Assembly: GCA_963733095.1 (NCBI GenBank)
Contig: CAVTBV010000001.1
Location: forward strand, 1 to 64,000
DNA length: 64,000 nt
Source of the DNA: Candidatus Bathyarchaeota archaeon
GTDB taxonomy: Archaea > Thermoproteota > Bathyarchaeia > Bathyarchaeales > Bathycorpusculaceae
Reading direction: 5' to 3'
In this document: positions 1,216 to 64,000 of the stretch, one piece after another
How the letters are laid out: each line of letters opens with the position of its first letter
Numbering within the stretch: the first letter of the stretch is position 1
Notes under the pieces: model-generated
Databases searched by the model: none
What the model saw: only the letters and a program-made list of their open reading frames with translations
What the model was told of the DNA's origin: nothing
Position numbers and translations under genes: made by a program

Positions 1216-2277
1216 ATGTCTACAAACCCAAAGCAGCCAACACCTAAAGAATGCCAAGAATGCAAAGACAAAAACAGGGACGTTGACTGCTGGAACCCAG
1301 ACAGGATGCTAGCCACCCTCATGTGCACCCATGACAAAGTAGACCACGACTGGGTTGAGAAAGGTCTACCAAAACTAGTCGATGAAGTTATGAATAGCTA
1401 CCAAAAGTTTGGCGGCATGGACCACCTTGAAGGACGAGACCTTCCCTCAAAAAAAGTAGTAATCGATGTTCTGGAAGATTTAGTCACAGTTCTTTTCCCA
1501 GGATATCTGGGCGATTCAGAAATCACTAAAGCCAACATAAAGTACCACCTGGGAAACACTCTGACATCGGTTTACACGCGGCTTACGCAGGAAGTTGAAC
1601 GCAGCCTAAAATACATCTGCAGAAAAGTCAGCGAGTGCCCACAGGACGTCTGCCAAAAACGTGCACACGTTGTGGTCAAGGAACTTCTTGAAAAACTACC
1701 AGAAATCCGCTCGATGCTAAGTAGCGATATTGAAGCTGCGTACAGCGGTGACCCGGCGGCAGTAAGCACCGAAGAAGTAATCCTTAGCTATCCCTGCGTG
1801 TTGGCAATTACCACTTACCGAATTGCACATGAACTCTACCTCAGCGGCGTACCATTAATTCCAAGAATAATGAGCGAACACATCCACTCCCAAACAGGCA
1901 TAGACATCCACCCGGGCGCCAAAATCGGCAAGAGCTTCTTTATCGACCACGGCACAGGCGTCGTCATAGGCGAAACCGCAGAAATCGGCGACAACGTCAA
2001 ACTCTACCAAGGCGTAACCCTAGGCGCATTAAGCTTTCCAAAAGACGAGAAAGGCAACATCATCAAAGGTCGTAAACGCCATCCAACAATAGGCAACAAC
2101 GTCGTTATCTATTCAGGTGCAACATTGCTGGGCGCTGAAACAGTTATTGGCGATAACGTAATCATCGGCGGAAACGTATGGATAACTTCCTCTGTCCCAT
2201 CAGGAACAAGAATCACCATCGCTGCTCCAGAGCTAAAATATAAAATGGAGAACCATACTCCAAAAGCTAACCACTAA
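1216..2277 (+). CDS. cysE: serine O-acetyltransferase
   Basis: [34 protein letters not shown] hexapeptide repeats; downstream of cysK. Confidence 0.95.
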
Positions 2278-54495: not shown

Positions 54496-57400
54496 CTAAT
54501 TAAAATCAAAAAGCTTGGCTTGCTTTGGCTTTTTATTGTCAAACATGGTAGCTATCTCTTCCTTGATTAAGTCCATGCGTTGTGTGTAGTATTTTGGCAA
54601 ACCGTACTTGTCAACTAGTTCCTGCGCTGCGACAAGATACTTTTCTATTCCGCCACGATAAACGGTAAGCGTAAGTTTTCCACCGCAAAAGGGGCATTTT
54701 CCTTTTAGGGGCAAGCGACGAAACTTTTTGTTACAAGACTTGCACCTAAATCCCTGCGTTGAGAAAGCCCGCATGTTCCCAGCAATGTCACGCATGAAAT
54801 GTGTGTTCAAAACTTTCAGCGCCACACGCCTAGCATCAACAGCATCGATCTTTTCACCCAGCTCCAACTGCATGTGGAGCTTATCTATCATGGATTTGAA
54901 TTCTTTGTAGGAGCTGTTGGCGTTTCCGAGGTTGATGTTTGTGCAGGGGGTCGTGTATTGGAAGCCTTCGAATTGTGCTTCTGTGCCTAATCGGTGGCTT
55001 ATGACATCCATCATGGCGCTGGCGGGTCTAGCGTCAAACTTTTCTTGGGTTTTCTTGTAGAATTCAAGGGGGTAGGTGGCGCTAACGTCGAAATCGTGGG
55101 CTTGGCGCTGGACCTCCTTGGTGTTGACGAAGGGAATGAGCAAAATGGGGGCATCCATAATTCCGCCTATCTGCGCAGGCAAAAACACTCTTGAAAAGTT
55201 AAGAAGTGTATCCAAGGCAAGCATGATGGCGTCTTCGTCGCCGTCACAATCCCGACGTTTCGCAGAATGCCAAACTGGATGAGCATAAATCACATTACGG
55301 TCAGTGAAGCCGACCACTCTGCCCAAAATGCATGCACACGTGTGAGGAGCCAACCCAAAAAGCAAGTGACCAACCAAATCTTCAGCTTTTTTGACATTGT
55401 AGTATGCGGGTTGTTTGTAGACGCGCAAAAGGAGGTCATCGATGAAAGCTGCGATTTGGACAAAATAGTCTGCTGCACGCCAAGGAATAACGACGTCTTG
55501 GATTTTTAGTTCGCAGACTTGATTAGGATCAGATAGGGGCAGGCCATGCGCATCAGCCAAATAACCCATTTGATGCATCTTTTCGACAGAGACTCCAACC
55601 TCGAATGGTGTGATATGCGTCAATGGGGCATTTGTGGCGTCAAAACGTATGGTACCATCCTTGTAAACTGAGAGCCCATGCTTTGCCCTCAAGACACCCT
55701 TTTCGATGCTTTCAGGGGTTTTATCGAGATTTGTTAGACCCTTAACACCACGCAACATTTTAGGAGCGGGGTAGCCAAGGTCTCGGCTGGCGGTTTCGAT
55801 TAACTCTTTGAAGTTGATGGGTTGACGCTGATACATGATGCCGTCGGTCTTGCAGGTTGGGCAAACAACGTCTCTTACGGTTCTGCCGCATCTTGGACAA
55901 AACTTCTCAGATATTGTTTCGCATTCACAGGTAGGACATTTGACTTTTATGGTGTAGCTTTTGCAGTTGGGGCATTTACGCTTAGCCAACTCAACAAAGA
56001 CGGGTCCTTGCCGCGAGGCTTCCACGAGGTCTCGATGTGAACCTCCCTTCAAACCGACTGGAAATAATACATGGACAAGGGGCTTCATCTCTCTATGTTT
56101 TGCTTTTTCTGGTCTTCCCATTCGCCCTCCCACATAGGTTGGGGCTTTATCTTTGATTTGCACACCCGAGAGCAGGCTCAGCATTTCCAGAACAGAACTT
56201 GCTTGAACAGCATCGTTTTTGCCAAAGCCAAGAGAAAACGCAAAGGCAGCTGCATCCTCACTCACCAGAGTGATTTTTCCGTCTGCCATTTTGTGTTGCA
56301 CAAAGATTTTTCGAAGGATACTTACCACTGCATCGTTAGCGTCTCCCTTTATTTTGCTTGCAAAGCCATCTTCCACTGTTACCTCGCAGGATTGCAGCCA
56401 CTTTCTCAGCATCTCGACGTCTTGAACGTCACATAGGTTTCCCCAAAATAAGGTACTACTCGGAGCAAGCGGGATATCTAAACAGGAACTCAATGTCACA
56501 GATTCTTTGATGTTTGATTTGTTCACAAATGGATCCAACAGGAAACTCTCTATCTTCTCTTTGGAAAGGTTTGTTGCTTGAGCAACCTTCCGACAATCCG
56601 AACCATACTTTGCTTGGATAGCGCTTTGGAGGTCTTTTGCCCACCATTCCTCCACGTATCCCGAAGGGGGAAGCGGTTTGTTGCAATAGAGGAAATCGCC
56701 AAAATCTATTAGCATATCTCCCAAGAACAGGATTTTTTTAACCTTGCCTTTTACCTCTGCATAGCTTTCGAGCGACACCCGAACAACAGAGTCATCCTTG
56801 AGCAAAACGACGGGTTTTTCAACGCTATCTACAGGCATCGTGACGCCGCCTTTGCCAGGCAACTCAAGACGCATCTGTGTGCCCGCTGCAAGGAAACTTT
56901 CAACCACAAGCATCGTGGCAGGATGAATCCCTACAGCTGAGAGCCCAGTGTTCCGTGACCTACCATACCTTAGGCGAAAACCGCCCCGTGTGGAGGGAAA
57001 AGCGAAAATGGGCCTGCCAGCAATCACATCATCCATAAACCCGCCTGATTTCTTCTCAGATTTCTTTTTGAAATTCTTGAGCCATTCCCAACCTTGAAAG
57101 CCCAGCTTATCAATTATCACATAGACTTTCTGGGCACGCCCCACGATTCCGTCGTTGACAACTCGCAACGCTCCACCTCTGACACGGTTGGTTTCCACTC
57201 TTTCCAAGTTCCGATATGACGAAACTTCAACGGGGTCTGATTCCGTTCCTGTACATTCAACCGGGATTAGGTTGAGAGCTTTTCTTAGTTCTTCGTCAGG
57301 TATATGATATTGAAAACGTCCTACTGAGCGTTCGTAGAGTCTTAGTTCTTCGATGAAGCGGGAGACTTCTTCCTCGGTGGGTTTGTACTTGTCTAAATTT

Positions 57401-57900
57401 AGCTGTCGGCGTACGTAGTCGCCTACTACAAGGGTTAAGGCTTGATCCGTTCCGCCCGCTGAACGGATTGGCCCAGCAAAGTAAACCCCTAAGTAGCGGG
57501 TTCGGTCAGCGTTGGTTTTTATTTTAACTTGAGCTATACCCTGAATTGGCGCTGCAGTTAAGCCTTCAGTGAAGATTGCAAGCGCCGTTCTAATGGCCTG
57601 CTCAGCCATTTTCTCAGGATTCTCCTCGCTGCCAAATTTGCCCTGAGCGATTTCTTCGGCGACTTTGAAGGCTATTTCTTCCCTTGGCATCTTGGTGCTC
57701 CAATCCCTGATGCTCAGAGCAACACCTTTGGGTCCAACCAAGCCTTCCACTAAGTCTGCGATATCCTGGGCGATGATGCATTCGGTTTTTAGGGCTGGGT
57801 CTAAGCCTTTGGATCTGGCGCTGTCGCTTATCGAATATAACCGCTTAAGTTCAGTTTCCATTGTTTCGATGTAGTTTTGATAGCCCTTGCTGATTTTCAA
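54496..57900 (-). CDS. polC: DNA polymerase D large subunit DP2
   Basis: AGPIRSAGGT, GFRLRYGRSR, RMGRPEKA, KRRDCDGDED, Zn fingers; no intein. Confidence 0.98.
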   Translation of the reverse strand: MKISKGYQNYIETMETELKRLYSISDSARSKGLDPALKTECIIAQDIADLVEGLVGPKGVALSIRDWSTKMPREEIAFKVAEEIAQGKFGSEENPEKMAEQAIRTALAIFTEGLTAAPIQGIAQVKIKTNADRTRYLGVYFAGPIRSAGGTDQALTLVVGDYVRRQLNLDKYKPTEEEVSRFIEELRLYERSVGRFQYHIPDEELRKALNLIPVECTGTESDPVEVSSYRNLERVETNRVRGGALRVVNDGIVGRAQKVYVIIDKLGFQGWEWLKNFKKKSEKKSGGFMDDVIAGRPIFAFPSTRGGFRLRYGRSRNTGLSAVGIHPATMLVVESFLAAGTQMRLELPGKGGVTMPVDSVEKPVVLLKDDSVVRVSLESYAEVKGKVKKILFLGDMLIDFGDFLYCNKPLPPSGYVEEWWAKDLQSAIQAKYGSDCRKVAQATNLSKEKIESFLLDPFVNKSNIKESVTLSSCLDIPLAPSSTLFWGNLCDVQDVEMLRKWLQSCEVTVEDGFASKIKGDANDAVVSILRKIFVQHKMADGKITLVSEDAAAFAFSLGFGKNDAVQASSVLEMLSLLSGVQIKDKAPTYVGGRMGRPEKAKHREMKPLVHVLFPVGLKGGSHRDLVEASRQGPVFVELAKRKCPNCKSYTIKVKCPTCECETISEKFCPRCGRTVRDVVCPTCKTDGIMYQRQPINFKELIETASRDLGYPAPKMLRGVKGLTNLDKTPESIEKGVLRAKHGLSVYKDGTIRFDATNAPLTHITPFEVGVSVEKMHQMGYLADAHGLPLSDPNQVCELKIQDVVIPWRAADYFVQIAAFIDDLLLRVYKQPAYYNVKKAEDLVGHLLFGLAPHTCACILGRVVGFTDRNVIYAHPVWHSAKRRDCDGDEDAIMLALDTLLNFSRVFLPAQIGGIMDAPILLIPFVNTKEVQRQAHDFDVSATYPLEFYKKTQEKFDARPASAMMDVISHRLGTEAQFEGFQYTTPCTNINLGNANSSYKEFKSMIDKLHMQLELGEKIDAVDARRVALKVLNTHFMRDIAGNMRAFSTQGFRCKSCNKKFRRLPLKGKCPFCGGKLTLTVYRGGIEKYLVAAQELVDKYGLPKYYTQRMDLIKEEIATMFDNKKPKQAKLFDFN

Positions 57901-59967: not shown

Positions 59968-60801
59968 ATGAAAGATAAAATTAGGCTTGCTCTCTGTCAG
60001 ATAAGCAGCAAAAGGGAAAACAAACAAGAAAACCTAAAGAAAATAGAAGAACTCACCTTAAAGGCAAAGGAGCAAGGAGCAGACTTAGCAATTTTCCCAG
60101 AGATGTCGCTGACAGGGTATGTGCTCCACGATCAAGTCTACGAGTTAGCAGAAACCATACCTGGTCCAACGGTGGGAAAAGTTGAAGCTTTAACGAAGAC
60201 AACAGGCATGCACGTCATCTTTGGAATGCCTGAGCTGAGCGAGAAAACCCAAGCGACAGTTTTCAACACAGCAGTTTTTGTTGGACCCAGAGGTTTAATC
60301 GGAAAATACCGCAAGATGTACCTTCCAACGCACAGCGTGTTCGAGGAAAAAAGGTACTTCCGGCCAGGATATGAGGCAGCGGGGTTCCAGACTGACATTG
60401 GAAACATCGGATTGTCCATTTGCTATGATGTTTTCTTTCCAGAAGTCTATAGGCTTACACGCCTTAAGGGTGCACAGCTTATGGTTTGTATATCTGCTTC
60501 TCCAGCGGTACGTAGGGGGTACTTTGAAATCCTGACTTCCGCTCGAGCACTGGAGAACACAGCGTTTCTTGCGTATGTTAACCTTGCGGGAGTTGAGGAT
60601 GGATTGCAATTTTGGGGCGGAAGCAGACTTGTAGGTCCAACGGGCGATGTTGTAGCTAAGGCAATGTACGATGAAGAGGATCTTGTTGTCTGCGATGTTG
60701 ATTTTGGCGATTTGAGGTCAGCTGAAACGTTTATTCCAACGATTCGTGACTTGCGTCCTGAACTCTTTGATAAACTAAAGGAATATTCTGAGAAAATATA
60801 G
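59968..60801 (+). CDS. carbon-nitrogen hydrolase (nitrilase superfamily amidase)
   Basis: FPEM, YRKMYL, ICYD catalytic E-K-C triad. Confidence 0.92.
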   Translation: MKDKIRLALCQISSKRENKQENLKKIEELTLKAKEQGADLAIFPEMSLTGYVLHDQVYELAETIPGPTVGKVEALTKTTGMHVIFGMPELSEKTQATVFNTAVFVGPRGLIGKYRKMYLPTHSVFEEKRYFRPGYEAAGFQTDIGNIGLSICYDVFFPEVYRLTRLKGAQLMVCISASPAVRRGYFEILTSARALENTAFLAYVNLAGVEDGLQFWGGSRLVGPTGDVVAKAMYDEEDLVVCDVDFGDLRSAETFIPTIRDLRPELFDKLKEYSEKI

Positions 60802-60803
60802 CG

Positions 60804-60930
60804 TGTCACATCAATTCTTGGGTCATGGAGTTTGGAATCACAGATGTATCACAGCCCTGTGATATCAAGCTTTTTTATGAAGAAATCACGTAAATTGGTG
60901 ATGTCACGGGCTTTTTCGATTTAAATCACA
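60804..60930. repeat. array of RTCAC/GTGAY pentamers (8 copies), including GTGATGTCAC
   Basis: Copies at about 60805, 60837, 60848, 60859, 60885, 60898, 60903 and 60925. Confidence 0.75.
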
Positions 60931-61269
60931 TTTTGATATAAGCTTGGTTTACAAGGTAATATACGGTAAAACTGTGTTTTGTTCGACATAAGTCCGTTAA
61001 ATTTTGCTTGAAACAGAGTAGGTGGTGTTTGTAAAAGTGCCTTTTTTATGTAAAGTTCTGCCTAAAAGCTGGATTTAATATCGAAGATTTTAGCCTTTTA
61101 AATGTTAATCAGCCAGAATTAACCGCAAATTAACCGAAAGCATTTGTTTTAGCTTTAATTTAGCAATCAATCAATAATTTAACCGTTAAATTGTAGCATT
61201 CATGGGTAGGGGCGCTCGGATAAAGGTTAAAAGTTAGGGTGAGTATACAAAATTGTATCCATTTCAAGC

Positions 61270-61767
61270 ATGGAGAGAAACAACAAATTGAAGTTAAAAG
61301 ACGGAGTACAAGCATGGTTAAACGGGGCTTTAAACGACCCCATTGTAGAAATACTGGCAAAAAACAGTCAATTAACAAAAACACAACTCGAAACATACCT
61401 AATAGACGTTTTAGCTGAAAATCTATCAGGTAAACAACTAAAATACGATGAAAAAGCCGCATTAAGGCTAACTAAGGCTAAAATAAGCCGTGGAGCCTTT
61501 AATAGGACATTAAAACAGTCCAAAGAAAACGTTATAAAATCCATATACACAGTATTACTTTTAGGGTATTTGGGTGTGTTTGAGAGCACAACTCTTGACC
61601 CTTACCTCGAAATAGCAAATAAACTGCACGAATATGTGGAAGCTCACCAGGATATGCCCGGTAAAGAAGAGGAACTAAAAGACCATCTAAAAGTCATAGA
61701 AATCATCCGAAACGAGCTCGAAATGAGCTTAAAACGACTTTCTAGCCCATCGAAAGAGGCCCTGTGA
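61270..61767 (+). CDS. hypothetical protein with probable HTH (LTKTQ...KYDEKAALRL...ISRGAFNRTLKQ)
   Basis: 165-aa ORF with a helix-turn-helix-like pattern; flanked on both sides by ATCAC arrays. Confidence 0.75.
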   Translation: MERNNKLKLKDGVQAWLNGALNDPIVEILAKNSQLTKTQLETYLIDVLAENLSGKQLKYDEKAALRLTKAKISRGAFNRTLKQSKENVIKSIYTVLLLGYLGVFESTTLDPYLEIANKLHEYVEAHQDMPGKEEELKDHLKVIEIIRNELEMSLKRLSSPSKEAL

Positions 61768-62074
61768 CATCACAAATCACATATTTTACCAAATTTTTTC
61801 ATTATTTTTACAAATTAATTTATAAAGAATATAAGTCTATTATTCAAGGGCTATTTGTAAAAATACCCCTAATCCTATGGTTATTTGATTCATGGAAAAG
61901 CAGTAGATGAAGCACCTTTAGTAATTTGTGATGTGTGATGTCATAGAAATGATGAGCAAATATCACCATAAACCTTAATAGTTCATGGGAAATATTGTGA
62001 TGTGTGATGCAACCCTTAAAATCACGGTTAAGTCACGTCTAAATCACAGGAGAACACATCACGATAGACCTCAC
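61764..62074. repeat. array of RTCAC/GTGAY pentamers (~12 copies), including GTGACATCAC and two copies of TTGTGATGTGTGATG
   Basis: Direct repeat at 61926-61940 and 61995-62009; 61764-61773 is the reverse complement of 60898-60907. Confidence 0.75.
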
Positions 62075-62843
62075 AACTGTAATCTTTGGCGTTTTATTAG
62101 CAGTCACAGCAGCAACTGCCTTTGAATATTACAGACAAATCCGCAAGGCGCATAAAGAATACGAGAAAGCCAGAGACTTTGTAGAAGATATCGTGTTAAG
62201 TTTCGACCGTGAACTTAAACGTGAATCAAACAGATTTGAGTCGATGGCGTCTAAAGTCGAAGGAAGCTACGCTAAAGCAGATACAAGCCTTAGAAAAATA
62301 GAGAGCCTCGAGAAAAAAATCGGCCCTTTCGAAGATAAGCTTAGTGATTTCAACCAATCATATCAGACTATGTCACAGTCAATCTCACAAACCCTTGCAG
62401 AAAGCACCCAAAACAACACAAAAATACTATCCGATTTGTCAGGGTTAGAAACCAAACTAAGAGATATCGAAGCAACCCAAGAAACTTTAAGAAACAGAAT
62501 AACAGGGGTCGAAGAACAGGTCCAAAAGCTGCCGACCACGCCATCTCAAGAAATAAAAAACGAAATCATGCTACCACCCATTCATATCAAACGTGACAAA
62601 GCATTAGCAGCATTGACAGATACCGAAATTACAGTTTTAGAAATGTTGTCTAAAGAAGGGCCAAAGACAGCTCCTGAAATAAAAGAAAGAGTGACTCTTA
62701 GCAGGGAACATACAGCTAGGTTGATGAAGAAACTCTATGAAGAAGGATACTTGGAGAGGGAATCTGGCAAAATTCCTTTCAGGTACAGCATCAAGATAGA
62801 AATGGAGAACCTCATGCAGAAGGCAGAGAGTAACCAATCATAA
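62058..62843 (+). CDS. membrane-anchored coiled-coil protein with C-terminal winged HTH; start probably non-canonical and upstream of the track's GTG
   Basis: Frame open from TAA 62040 encodes ITIDLTTVIFGVLLAVTAATAFEYYRQIRK (TM then basic), a heptad-rich middle, and LTDTEITVLEML...TAPEIKERVTLSREHTARLMKKLYEEGYLER. Confidence 0.8.
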   Translation: MTIDLTTVIFGVLLAVTAATAFEYYRQIRKAHKEYEKARDFVEDIVLSFDRELKRESNRFESMASKVEGSYAKADTSLRKIESLEKKIGPFEDKLSDFNQSYQTMSQSISQTLAESTQNNTKILSDLSGLETKLRDIEATQETLRNRITGVEEQVQKLPTTPSQEIKNEIMLPPIHIKRDKALAALTDTEITVLEMLSKEGPKTAPEIKERVTLSREHTARLMKKLYEEGYLERESGKIPFRYSIKIEMENLMQKAESNQS

Positions 62844-62882
62844 AACTATAGCATTGATTTGGTAAATTGTTACTCGATGTGA

Positions 62883-63314
62883 TTATTTTATGCGTTGTTT
62901 TAAGGTTGCTTGTGGAATGTTTGGTGCGGTCTTGTACTTTAGGCTGTTTGATCCGCCTGTCCTTAGCAGCATACCTTTTGTAGCCATCCTTGAAAGGTAA
63001 GTTGAAACTGTACTGAGACTAACTGGTTCTTTGAGTTCTTGCTCATAGATTGACTGGATGTCTTTTGATGAGAACCAAATCAAGGGAAAATTCCTCTGGA
63101 TAACTAATTGAACCTTCTCAAAACGAGACAAAATCTTATTTGGTAAGGTGTTTCCTGCACTTGCAGTGGGACCTTCACCAGGTGCACCGCCTAACAATTC
63201 AACCAGATCGAGCAGGCGCAGAGCTTTGTCACGGGTCACTTGACCCTCAAAAGCAATGGTATATCGATTACCATCACTATCGAACAGCTCAACACGCATT
63301 TTACGAGCCGGCAT
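62883..63314 (-). CDS. two-domain protein with C-terminal winged HTH
   Basis: Small N-terminal domain, Gly/Pro linker, WFSSKDIQSIYEQ...VSLSTVSTYLSRMATKGML. Confidence 0.8.
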   Translation of the reverse strand: MPARKMRVELFDSDGNRYTIAFEGQVTRDKALRLLDLVELLGGAPGEGPTASAGNTLPNKILSRFEKVQLVIQRNFPLIWFSSKDIQSIYEQELKEPVSLSTVSTYLSRMATKGMLLRTGGSNSLKYKTAPNIPQATLKQRIK

Positions 63315-63334
63315 CTGGTTACACCTTAAGGTTG

Positions 63335-63743
63335 TTCACAATTTACGCTTCACACCTTATAGCTGTTATGGTGAAACAGGAGATGAAAAATAGCCAGAAT
63401 TGAACCTAAAAATATGTAATAGGTGAATTTTGGAGCTAATTCATTATTACCAGCTTCACAATAAAGTAAAACAGCTGAAGAAATTTAGTTACAGCTTGGA
63501 TTCACTTTTCCAGTAGAAGTGTAGGGGTGCCTTATTCACTTGTAAAAGACAGGAATAAGGTAATTTATCAGAAATGGAACTCAACAACGCGACAATTACA
63601 AAGCTAATTCACATATATTCACAATTTTGTGAACGGAAAAACTCAGAAAAACTCCTGAGAAAAAAAGAAAAGAGAACTTGGCATTTCAACAAGCATGCCA
63701 TGATTAAAACAACCTACCAACCGCTTTTTTCAACATAATTCAC
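63335..63743. repeat. array of TTCAC/GTGAA pentamers (~11 copies), including palindrome TTCACAA-TT-TTGTGAA
   Basis: Copies at about 63335, 63349, 63371, 63423, 63455, 63501, 63535, 63608, 63618, 63629 and 63739. Confidence 0.7.
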
Positions 63744-63972
63744 CATGGAAAAATTCTCGCAGGCACACCCCTATGTTTCCTCTCGAAGCATTTGGGACAA
63801 AAAGAAGTCAGAAGAGGTCGAAAAAATATTTACAGAATGTTTGTCTAAAATCTTGGATAGCAATTATTAATATATAAAATTACGTTTTACCTATCAGAGT
63901 ATATATCTATATATAATATAATTAGTGTTTTTCTTTTAACAAACCTTTTTCTCCAGTAGAAACTTTGGGGTG
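63508..63972 (+). other. putative replication origin: two ORB elements plus an AT-rich DUE-like tract
   Basis: TTCCAGTAGAAGTGTAGGGGTG (63508-29) and CTCCAGTAGAAACTTTGGGGTG (63951-72) match the archaeal ORB pattern TCCA-N3-GAAA...GGGG; near-pure A/T runs at 63863-63925; gene-free for over 680 bp. Confidence 0.72.
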
Positions 63973-64000
63973 TGTCTACTCTTGCTTTATTTAGTCTATG

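Follow-up and report, generated by a model that had tools for sequence, protein, structure and literature searches.

The replicon model of 1963 postulated an anchor between the replication origin and the membrane. In Bacillus subtilis, RacA (with ram sites and DivIVA) and Noc (with NBS sites) are dedicated binders of origin-proximal or chromosome-wide sites, and link DNA to the membrane or the cell pole. RicO of S. aureus, in the part of the published account used here, combines a DNA-binding domain, a coiled coil and an amphipathic helix, has nine sites (ricS) in the origin-proximal 700 kb, and is reported to anchor origins at the membrane for segregation, with chromatin immunoprecipitation sequencing, electrophoretic mobility shift assays and genetics behind that role. 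We describe here three genes, designated g1, g2 and g3, that stand beside a replication origin in the first 64 kb (the window) of contig C1 from the 2.84-Mb, 16-contig genome of a Candidatus Bathyarchaeota archaeon. By open reading frame (ORF) list and Pfam scan, they are the only genes between a nitrilase (carbon-nitrogen hydrolase) gene and orc1/cdc6. Most likely they form an origin-organizing or origin-controlling module with tight autoregulation. The more specific reading, in which the trio are vertically inherited, origin-flanking proteins of DNA-binding type, each with private cis sites, that would together organize the origin, is put forward tentatively, as a serious possibility rather than a probability.

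61270-61767, plus strand: g1, 165 amino acids, ATG start; all-helical protein of an uncharacterised family
62058-62843, plus strand: g2, N-terminal membrane helix, coiled coil of ~130 amino acids, C-terminal winged helix of MarR/TrmB type
62883-63314, minus strand: g3, 143 amino acids, ATG start; N-terminal domain of beta-hairpin plus helix, linker, C-terminal winged helix; transcribed away from the origin

RicO/ricS would be the closest working analogue. As far as the account of RicO just mentioned goes, and taking g2 by its sequence alone, each combines a sequence-specific DNA-binding domain, a coiled coil and a membrane element in one protein, with sites near the origin. RicO is a bacterial protein with an N-terminal DNA-binding domain and a C-terminal amphipathic helix, whereas g2 has an N-terminal transmembrane helix and a C-terminal winged helix-turn-helix (wHTH). 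The nine RicO sites extend over about 700 kb, while about 16 putative g2 sites fall within 1.2 kb and lie over the promoter of g2 itself as well. RacA and Noc differ from g2 in their MerR-like helix-turn-helix (HTH) and ParB-like folds, in the wide spread of their sites, and in a membrane contact that is indirect or made by an amphipathic helix.

In the plasmid partition systems parC/ParR and tubC/TubR, arrays of short repeats upstream of the binder's gene serve as both operator and centromere, and TubR is a winged-helix protein. The motors ParM, TubZ and SegA adjoin parC/ParR, tubC/TubR and SegAB (for SegAB, the part of PMC7617429 used here), whereas the trio block has none. No ParA/SegA Walker ATPase gene was found between the nitrilase gene and cdc6, the only part of the genome searched for ParA. 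The ParABS and SegAB partition families fail on the motor gene.

A non-initiator protein at an archaeal origin has a precedent in UBP, which acts on a conserved motif, ucm, next to the origin recognition boxes (ORBs) inside Sulfolobus oriC1; the portion of that report used here describes UBP as beta-rich, a nucleoid protein whose sites in the genome number in the hundreds, and indicates that archaeal origins can need a non-initiator binder (PMC12141716). By the same portion, g3 is unlike UBP in being a winged-helix protein with putative private sites and a gene at the origin, where UBP is a nucleoid protein. The UBP chain is not among the PDB profile matches of g1 and g3 at E-values up to 10, although the presence of UBP entries in the searched copy is unverified.

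Results

Arrays of short sites in the spacers

The spacers of the block carry two families of pentamer sites and one single element.

60837..60929, either strand: ATCAC array A, 6 ATCAC/GTGAT sites (60837-60925), 345-430 bp upstream of g1
61243..61260, plus strand: GTATAC-N6-GTATCC, a single site between a TTAAAA box and the g1 start codon
61764..62062, either strand: ATCAC array B, 10 ATCAC/GTGAT sites (61769-62058) plus GTCAC variants, over the g2 promoter region and start codon
63335..63743, either strand: TTCACA array, 11 TTCAC/GTGAA sites (63335-63739), between and beside the ORBs

The initial annotation had pointed to about 20 ATCAC and about 11 TTCAC pentamers in unusually long intergenic gaps. 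The interval 60802-64123 holds 19 ATCAC/GTGAT and 14 TTCAC/GTGAA, 11 of the latter in 63335-63739, against genome-wide rates of 1.25 and 2.04 per kb. In a scan of the full 2.84 Mb, array B is the densest and array A the second densest ATCAC cluster, and the TTCACA array is the densest TTCAC cluster; at least five ATCAC occur in only 4 of ~18,900 half-overlapping 300-bp intervals. The genome-wide count proposed with that annotation thus came out in its favor, as the arrays are far denser than elsewhere in the genome, and conserved.

The extended ATCAC consensus is A-N-ATCAC-R, with frequent 7-bp tandem pairs or the palindrome GTGATATCAC; the second motif extends to TTCACA. Three of the five genomic copies of ATCAC-NN-ATCAC lie at this locus, as does the single genomic copy of TTCACA-N2-6-TGTGAA, and the TTCACA array includes the palindrome TTCACAATTTTGTGAA at 63618. 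ATCAC sites recur at ~11-bp steps across the g2 core promoter and start codon. TTCACA sites bracket a putative g3 TATA box (63349-63375). In an alignment of 10 loci from the genus, ATCAC and TTCAC sites are the sole conserved blocks of otherwise free spacers. By 6-mer enrichment, ATCACA ranks first in the g1-g2 spacer of all 21 loci (117 copies, 16-fold), and TGTGAA ranks second in the g3-cdc6 spacer, behind the ORB core CACCCC, in 18 of 18 (99 copies, 8-fold). Of 21 loci, 14 have an upstream ATCAC array, defined as at least five sites in the 500 bp that precede g1.

The GTATAC half of the element ahead of g1 is exact in 20 of 21 loci, the whole element occurs once in the genome, and a counterpart, TATACA-N4-TGTATA, stands at the g1 5' end in 7 of 7 Nitrosopumilaceae loci. 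An operator shared by g1 and cdc6 was considered and dropped, as GTATCC-like words upstream of cdc6 are not conserved beyond a few genus members. Three TTAACCG words in the spacer upstream of g1 (61117-61192) are not conserved among the genus loci.

A second repeat interleaved with the origin recognition boxes

Origins of oriC1 type, as in Sulfolobus and Pyrococcus, have inverted ORBs that flank an A+T-rich core beside orc1/cdc6, with PolD genes near. The g3-cdc6 spacer of 809 bp holds three ORB boxes and such a core.

63506-63529, plus strand: ORB-a, direct, exact core TCCAGTAGAA; TTCAC 7 nt past the G-string, the composite running to 63539
63761-63787, minus strand: ORB-b, inverted and degenerate, kept within the genus
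63860..63945: A+T-rich candidate unwinding element between ORB-b and ORB-c
63949-63975, plus strand: ORB-c, direct, exact core TCCAGTAGAA

The initial annotation had noticed two boxes. Two direct ones lie at 63506-63529 and 63949-63975, and an inverted, degenerate one at 63761-63787. All three are conserved across the 10 genus loci, and the full ORB pattern has one further occurrence genome-wide, on contig C16. G+C falls to 16.3% over 80 bp at 63860-63939, compared to 43.9% contig-wide. The origin is an ordinary one of oriC1 type, with inverted ORBs around an A+T-rich core adjoining orc1/cdc6. It differs from the Sulfolobus and Pyrococcus examples in having a second conserved repeat, TTCACA, among the ORBs, with one copy at a fixed ORB offset. 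GGGG-N7-TTCAC occurs at ORB-a with exact spacing in 12 of 18 loci, and four more of the 18 have TTAAC or TTTAC at the same offset. Judged by its sequence, the ORB-a composite would mean either that a second protein adjoins Orc1/Cdc6 or that the initiator reads a longer site.

The cumulative G-C skew stays flat along contig C1 and is of no help. An Rfam scan of 60700-64200 gave no match at E-values up to 1. A sigma-70 promoter and terminator scan was set aside, its model not being applicable to archaea. Two short ORFs of 54 and 41 amino acids (63574-63738 and 63745-63870) lie within the origin; they are probably not genes, and conservation there tracks the DNA motifs and not the reading frame. 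The cdc6 promoter region (C1 64040-64095, past the window) is strongly conserved and has a mini-ORB-like word, TTCCACACGAAAT (TTCCAGTCGAAAT in relatives), that directly follows a CTTTATC TATA-like box. This mini-ORB at the promoter suggests that cdc6 may be autoregulated by its own product. A second Orc1/Cdc6 paralogue, 29% identical to the origin-linked copy, is encoded at C13:144161-145261; the full ORB consensus was not seen on C13.

A membrane helix, a coiled coil and a winged helix in g2

The ORF list puts the start of g2 at a GTG at 62193, but the frame is open from 62043. Counted from 62058, residues 1-19 form a hydrophobic helix of transmembrane grade, with a Kyte-Doolittle 19-residue mean of 2.05, and orthologues align from residue 1. 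The 45 codons ahead of the GTG show dN/dS (the ratio of nonsynonymous to synonymous substitution rates) of 0.09-0.21 against five genus orthologues, a mark of purifying selection, so the membrane helix is translated. No ATG, GTG or TTG precedes the helix in this genus; locus L021 has TTG. Eight genus loci lack a canonical start, and in all eight a conserved ATCACG after a GGAG-like word opens the frame, for a start at ATC or ACG. An ATCAC site thus overlaps the g2 start codon in the genus (62040-62066 in the window; L014-L020 and L033). In other families the start is ATG or TTG, and in Nitrosotalea the motif overlaps it in the opposite orientation (GTGATG).

Residues 186-244 score above the Pfam cut-offs for MarR (31.6 bits versus 24.6), TrmB (28.9 versus 25.6) and HTH_27 (27 versus 22.2), while residues ~26-170 give coiled-coil-type matches only. 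In public records, relatives of g2 go only under the generic names of winged-helix, HxlR or MarR regulators. Compared to the soluble MarR/TrmB dimer, where dimerization helices lie on both sides of the wHTH and a ligand pocket is frequent, the predicted build of g2 differs in placing a C-terminal wHTH behind a membrane helix and a coiled-coil-type region of ~130 residues. By the positive-inside rule, the basic stretch after the helix would leave the rest of the protein in the cytoplasm, and no sensor domain outside the membrane is seen in the g2 sequence. Conservation in g2 is concentrated in a juxtamembrane motif (AK..VEDIVLSFNRQL) and in the recognition helix (REHTARLMKKL). The membrane helix is kept in every family aligned and in Nitrosotalea. 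The architecture that the initial annotation assigned to g2 is therefore real and old, kept as far as Nitrosotalea.

The winged-helix protein g3 and the helical protein g1

An AlphaFold2 model of g3 (mean pLDDT, the predicted local distance difference test, 69) shows a beta-hairpin and helix at residues 3-41 and a winged helix at residues 64-129, joined by a disordered linker. This winged helix is of a generic kind, with VIA-align Z-scores up to 10.7 to Fur, BlaI/MecI, PadR and ArsR types and 7.8 to TubR; the N-terminal domain is barely tested by these comparisons. Foldseek of the model against PDB gave no match at an E-value of 0.001 or better, the best being 3e-3. The protein stays below the cut-off of Pfam Penicillinase_R (PF03965) at 19 bits versus 22.6, and a PDB profile search finds CopR-like 2k4b at an E-value of 0.043. 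Neither g2 nor g3 matched a ParB or ribbon-helix-helix family in family scans, which covered the beta-beta-alpha N-terminal domain of g3 only within the whole protein. Prediction of an Orc1/Cdc6-g3 complex scored 0.00 in two runs in which the controls did not fold either, and is evidence neither way.

For g1, the AlphaFold2 model (mean pLDDT 57) is too poor for structure search. No Pfam or NCBIfam family matches at a meaningful E-value, none of 41 family members matches an HTH family, and a PDB profile search finds nothing credible. In ESM Atlas, g1 meets only Bathyarchaeota "hypothetical" clusters, plus a 0.79 lead to a cluster with 14% Sigma70_r4. With 318 representative clusters at an E-value of 0.001 or better, the g1 family is small and stands by itself. 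We suspect that SRGAFNRTLKQ in g1 may be a turn and recognition helix. Of the HTH or wHTH patterns originally attributed to all three genes, those of g2 (Pfam cut-offs passed) and g3 (AlphaFold2 and VIA-align) hold up, and that of g1 has the support of no tool.

Contigs from one sediment metatranscriptome, in which 5% of sampled words were present, come from relatives at 85-99% likeness and cover 62107-62335, in g2 upstream of the GTG, and 62952-63275, in g3. They mark presence in an RNA library only, and are uninformative for the parts not covered.

Conservation and linkage

Gene g2 is found in 35 of 41 related genomes (27 of 30 of good quality). At the level of the order, g1 and g2 are adjacent in 20 of 20 loci, g3 is present in 19 (the remaining locus runs off its contig), and cdc6 is adjacent in 17, with the other three cut by contig ends. 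These genomes are kin, and counts of conservation and co-occurrence among them are not statistical tests. Sequence identity declines with host distance, from 94% in the genus to about 50% in the order and about 36% in Nitrosopumilaceae. The relatives' proteins are publicly named "hypothetical protein". Linkage is retained where neighbors have been reshuffled, as in L024, L026 and L029-31. The genes around the block are as follows.

54496-57900: DNA polymerase D large subunit (PolD_L), flanking the region
59968-60801: carbon-nitrogen hydrolase (nitrilase) gene, Pfam CN_hydrolase
64124-65365: orc1/cdc6, just beyond the end of the window, with Cdc6_lid, Cdc6_C and AAA
65367-66956: DNA polymerase D small subunit (PolD_S), flanking the region

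Across the phylum, g3 occurs as a single copy in 197 of 301 genomes (172 of 263 of good quality) and g1 in 158 of 301. Both are present in all 43 genomes of Nitrosopumilaceae (f18), where the order PolD_S-cdc6-g3-g2-g1-GGGPS-PolD_L is kept. Nitrosotalea has cdc6, the origin, g3, a small gene, g2, g1, GGGPS and the PolD large subunit, in that order; its g2 has 186 amino acids with a membrane helix, a short coiled coil and a wHTH, and its g1 has 130. The small gene between g3 and g2 (L055 about 2085-2235, minus strand) has, by eye, the look of an AbrB/SpoVT-type swapped hairpin. Of 25 genomes of Methanomethylicia (f24), 19 have g3 and none has g1; g2, g3 and both arrays are kept. Among the families searched, neither g1 nor g3 was found in f19, f27, f28, f32, f33 and f35. 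The 20 phylum-level g3 loci divide into 10 with g1, g2 and g3, four with g1 and g3, two with g2 and g3, and four with g3 alone; cdc6 adjoins g3 in 12. ORB-like boxes lie by g3 in three loci without adjacent cdc6 (L072, L067, L060), and TTCAC is retained by g3 where cdc6 is distant (L067, L059, L060). The linkage to origins expected by the initial annotation is accordingly borne out by the 17 of 20 order-level loci with cdc6 beside the trio and by its recurrence in Nitrosopumilaceae, and fails in some lineages where g1 and g3 are unlinked.

This distribution bears on two explanations other than an origin module. In the first, the trio are three ordinary autoregulated transcription factors whose function lies elsewhere and whose position at oriC is historical, owing to frozen gene order, early-replication dosage or low recombination. 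The flanking PolD subunits, GGGPS, NadE and nitrilase are syntenic too, the genes are dispersed yet retained in f26 and part of f31, and the generic regulator names of g2 relatives fit as well. The genes for OapA, OapB and OapC lie beside the main haloarchaeal origin. As far as the portions used here describe it, OapA is a small GTPase linked to the formation of vesicles (PMC10927574, PMC7002104); it has no likeness to g1-g3 by name or domain, and serves as a precedent (PMC10927574) and a warning that position is not function. Against this explanation, the linkage outlives reshuffled neighbors and spans Bathyarchaeia, Nitrosopumilaceae and Methanomethylicia, g3 remains by ORB-like boxes even without cdc6, TTCACA is interleaved with ORBs at fixed spacing, and the size of the arrays is extreme for the genome. 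We judge it unlikely.

In the second, the block is the remnant of a replication-partition cassette from an integrated plasmid or virus, with an iteron-like array and a Rep- or centromere-binding protein. Direct repeats in the origin and an inverted repeat at the binder's promoter do resemble an iteron plasmid, and arrays upstream of the binder's gene recall parC/ParR and tubC/TubR, with TubR among the generic matches of g3. The genes, however, are single-copy and fixed in position, with identity that falls with host distance, and no integrase, tRNA border or composition break turned up in the ORF lists, although no dedicated search was made. This origin for the block is very improbable.

Proposed assignment of proteins to sites

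Arrays of at least five ATCAC per 300 bp occur in 11 of the 12 phylum-level loci with adjacent g2 and in 0 of the 8 without; L071 is counted among the latter, its g2-like match being weak and 7 kb off. The recognition helix of g2 (REHT.R..K.L) is invariant from Bathyarchaeia to Nitrosotalea, and ATCACA is likewise unchanged. Where the g3 helix has the sequence LSTVSTYLSR, the repeat on the origin side is TTCACA; all 7 Nitrosopumilaceae loci have TGTTAA in its place, with 7-12 copies in 450 bp, together with a helix of sequence LS[VI]ISTYLSR. This covariation of repeat and helix is weak because only two lineages show it. The candidate pairings that we infer are g2 with ATCACA and g3 with TTCACA.

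A HerA-like/NurA-like pair in other families

The initial annotation saw no ATPase here, and took that for a sign of a different design. This is right for the genus, and does not extend to other families: in 7 of 11 of their loci, as in 1 of 9 loci of this genus (8 of 20 in total), genes for a NurA-like and a HerA-like protein lie between g3 and g2 on the g3 strand.

L022 6299-8831, g3 strand: divergent NurA-like plus HerA-like pair; in the same place in L017, L023, L024, L026, L027, L028 and L032

The NurA-like protein has 333 amino acids and a weak match to PF09376. The HerA-like ATPase has 519 and matches DUF87 (E-value 1.4e-7), HerA_Thermprot (1e-14) and CedD (7e-14). In L027 the matches to the pair are split over several frames. 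The pair is absent from the present locus and has no tblastn match anywhere in this genome. The ancestral block held the HerA-like ATPase and NurA-like nuclease, which were lost here. A different HerA-like (DUF87, 54.8 bits) and NurA-like (19.1 bits, below cut-off) pair lies at C3:66168-68058.

The pair enters into a third explanation, that of a replication or cell-cycle control circuit without structural role, in which g3, with g1 and g2, regulates itself, cdc6 and, where present, the nurA-herA-like operon. Here g3 may gate Orc1/Cdc6 at ORB-a, and anchoring of g2 may sequester or release a regulator. CtrA, Spo0A and SeqA gate initiator access at bacterial origins in a comparable way. The TTCAC sites that bracket the g3 TATA box also abut ORB-a, in other families g3 is the first gene of an operon that also holds the NurA-like and HerA-like genes, the stepped ATCAC sites cover the g2 core promoter and start codon, and the mini-ORB in the cdc6 promoter marks the region as a regulatory hub. 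But 16 ATCAC over 1.2 kb and 11 TTCAC over 400 bp surpass the usual needs of an operator, g3 and its array persist in the genus despite loss of the nurA-herA-like pair, no further composite sites hinting at a regulon were found genome-wide, and g2 lacks a sensor domain outside the membrane. A circuit of this kind deserves consideration, and we think it rather unlikely.

Discussion

In the mechanism proposed for an origin module, g2 would bind A-N-ATCAC-R sites flanking g1 and over its own promoter and start codon. Because g2 lacks an outside domain, its N-terminal helix being all that it has in the membrane, the DNA it binds would be held at the membrane; if anchored g2 does bind the arrays, membrane attachment of array DNA follows physically. 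Along with the ATCACA arrays, 1.5-3 kb from the ORBs, g2 would thereby keep the flank of the origin at the cell membrane. The g3 protein would bind TTCACA sites around its own TATA box for autoregulation, and since TTCACA also lies between and beside the Orc1/Cdc6 boxes, it would share the origin with the initiator. Control of g1 would act through the one unique site where its transcription begins. All this would add up to a nucleoprotein complex able to position or attach the origin region and to set the dose of its own components tightly.

Several observations weigh against this reading. The arrays overlie the genes' own promoters, and plain autorepression could explain at least part of the pattern. 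The TTCAC at a fixed offset could instead belong to a longer recognition site for Orc1/Cdc6 or for the C13 paralogue. The block is divisible: g3 stands alone in 4 of 20 phylum loci, Methanomethylicia lack g1, g1 and g3 in f26 are hundreds of kb apart or on separate contigs, and in one f31 genus they are 13 kb apart. L065 has g2 but no ATCAC array. The PolD and GGGPS neighborhood is also syntenic, so the linkage may in part reflect frozen gene order, and kinship of the genomes means that the counts overstate independence. The block in this genome has no motor gene. A role for the trio in segregation or tethering, the heart of the initial annotation, is a candidate only, suggested by sequence features. 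The fullest version, with g2 as origin-to-membrane anchor, g3 as a second origin-recognition factor on ORB-TTCACA and the HerA-like translocase as the original motor of a joint segregation and positioning system of Bathyarchaeia, ammonia-oxidizing Nitrosopumilaceae and Methanomethylicia, is speculative, and we doubt that all of it would hold.

Full-text literature searches, with supplementary files outside their reach, found no description of the g1-g3 genes or motifs. The contributions of this work are the co-occurrence of g2 with its arrays, the non-canonical g2 start with its selection test, the fixed spacing of ORB and TTCAC, and the Methanomethylicia and dispersed cases.

The mechanism and essentiality of Sulfolobus SegAB are still open according to the part of a 2024 review used here (PMC7617429). 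How archaeal chromosomes are positioned and segregated is largely unknown, and the trio gives concrete, conserved candidates: a putative membrane-anchored, site-specific binder with a dense private array, and a winged-helix protein whose sites are interleaved with those of the initiator. Should they be only self-regulating transcription factors, they would still make a clean case of operator arrays conserved across archaeal classes. The same genes and motifs occur in culturable Nitrosopumilaceae, so the idea can be tested without cultivating Bathyarchaeia.

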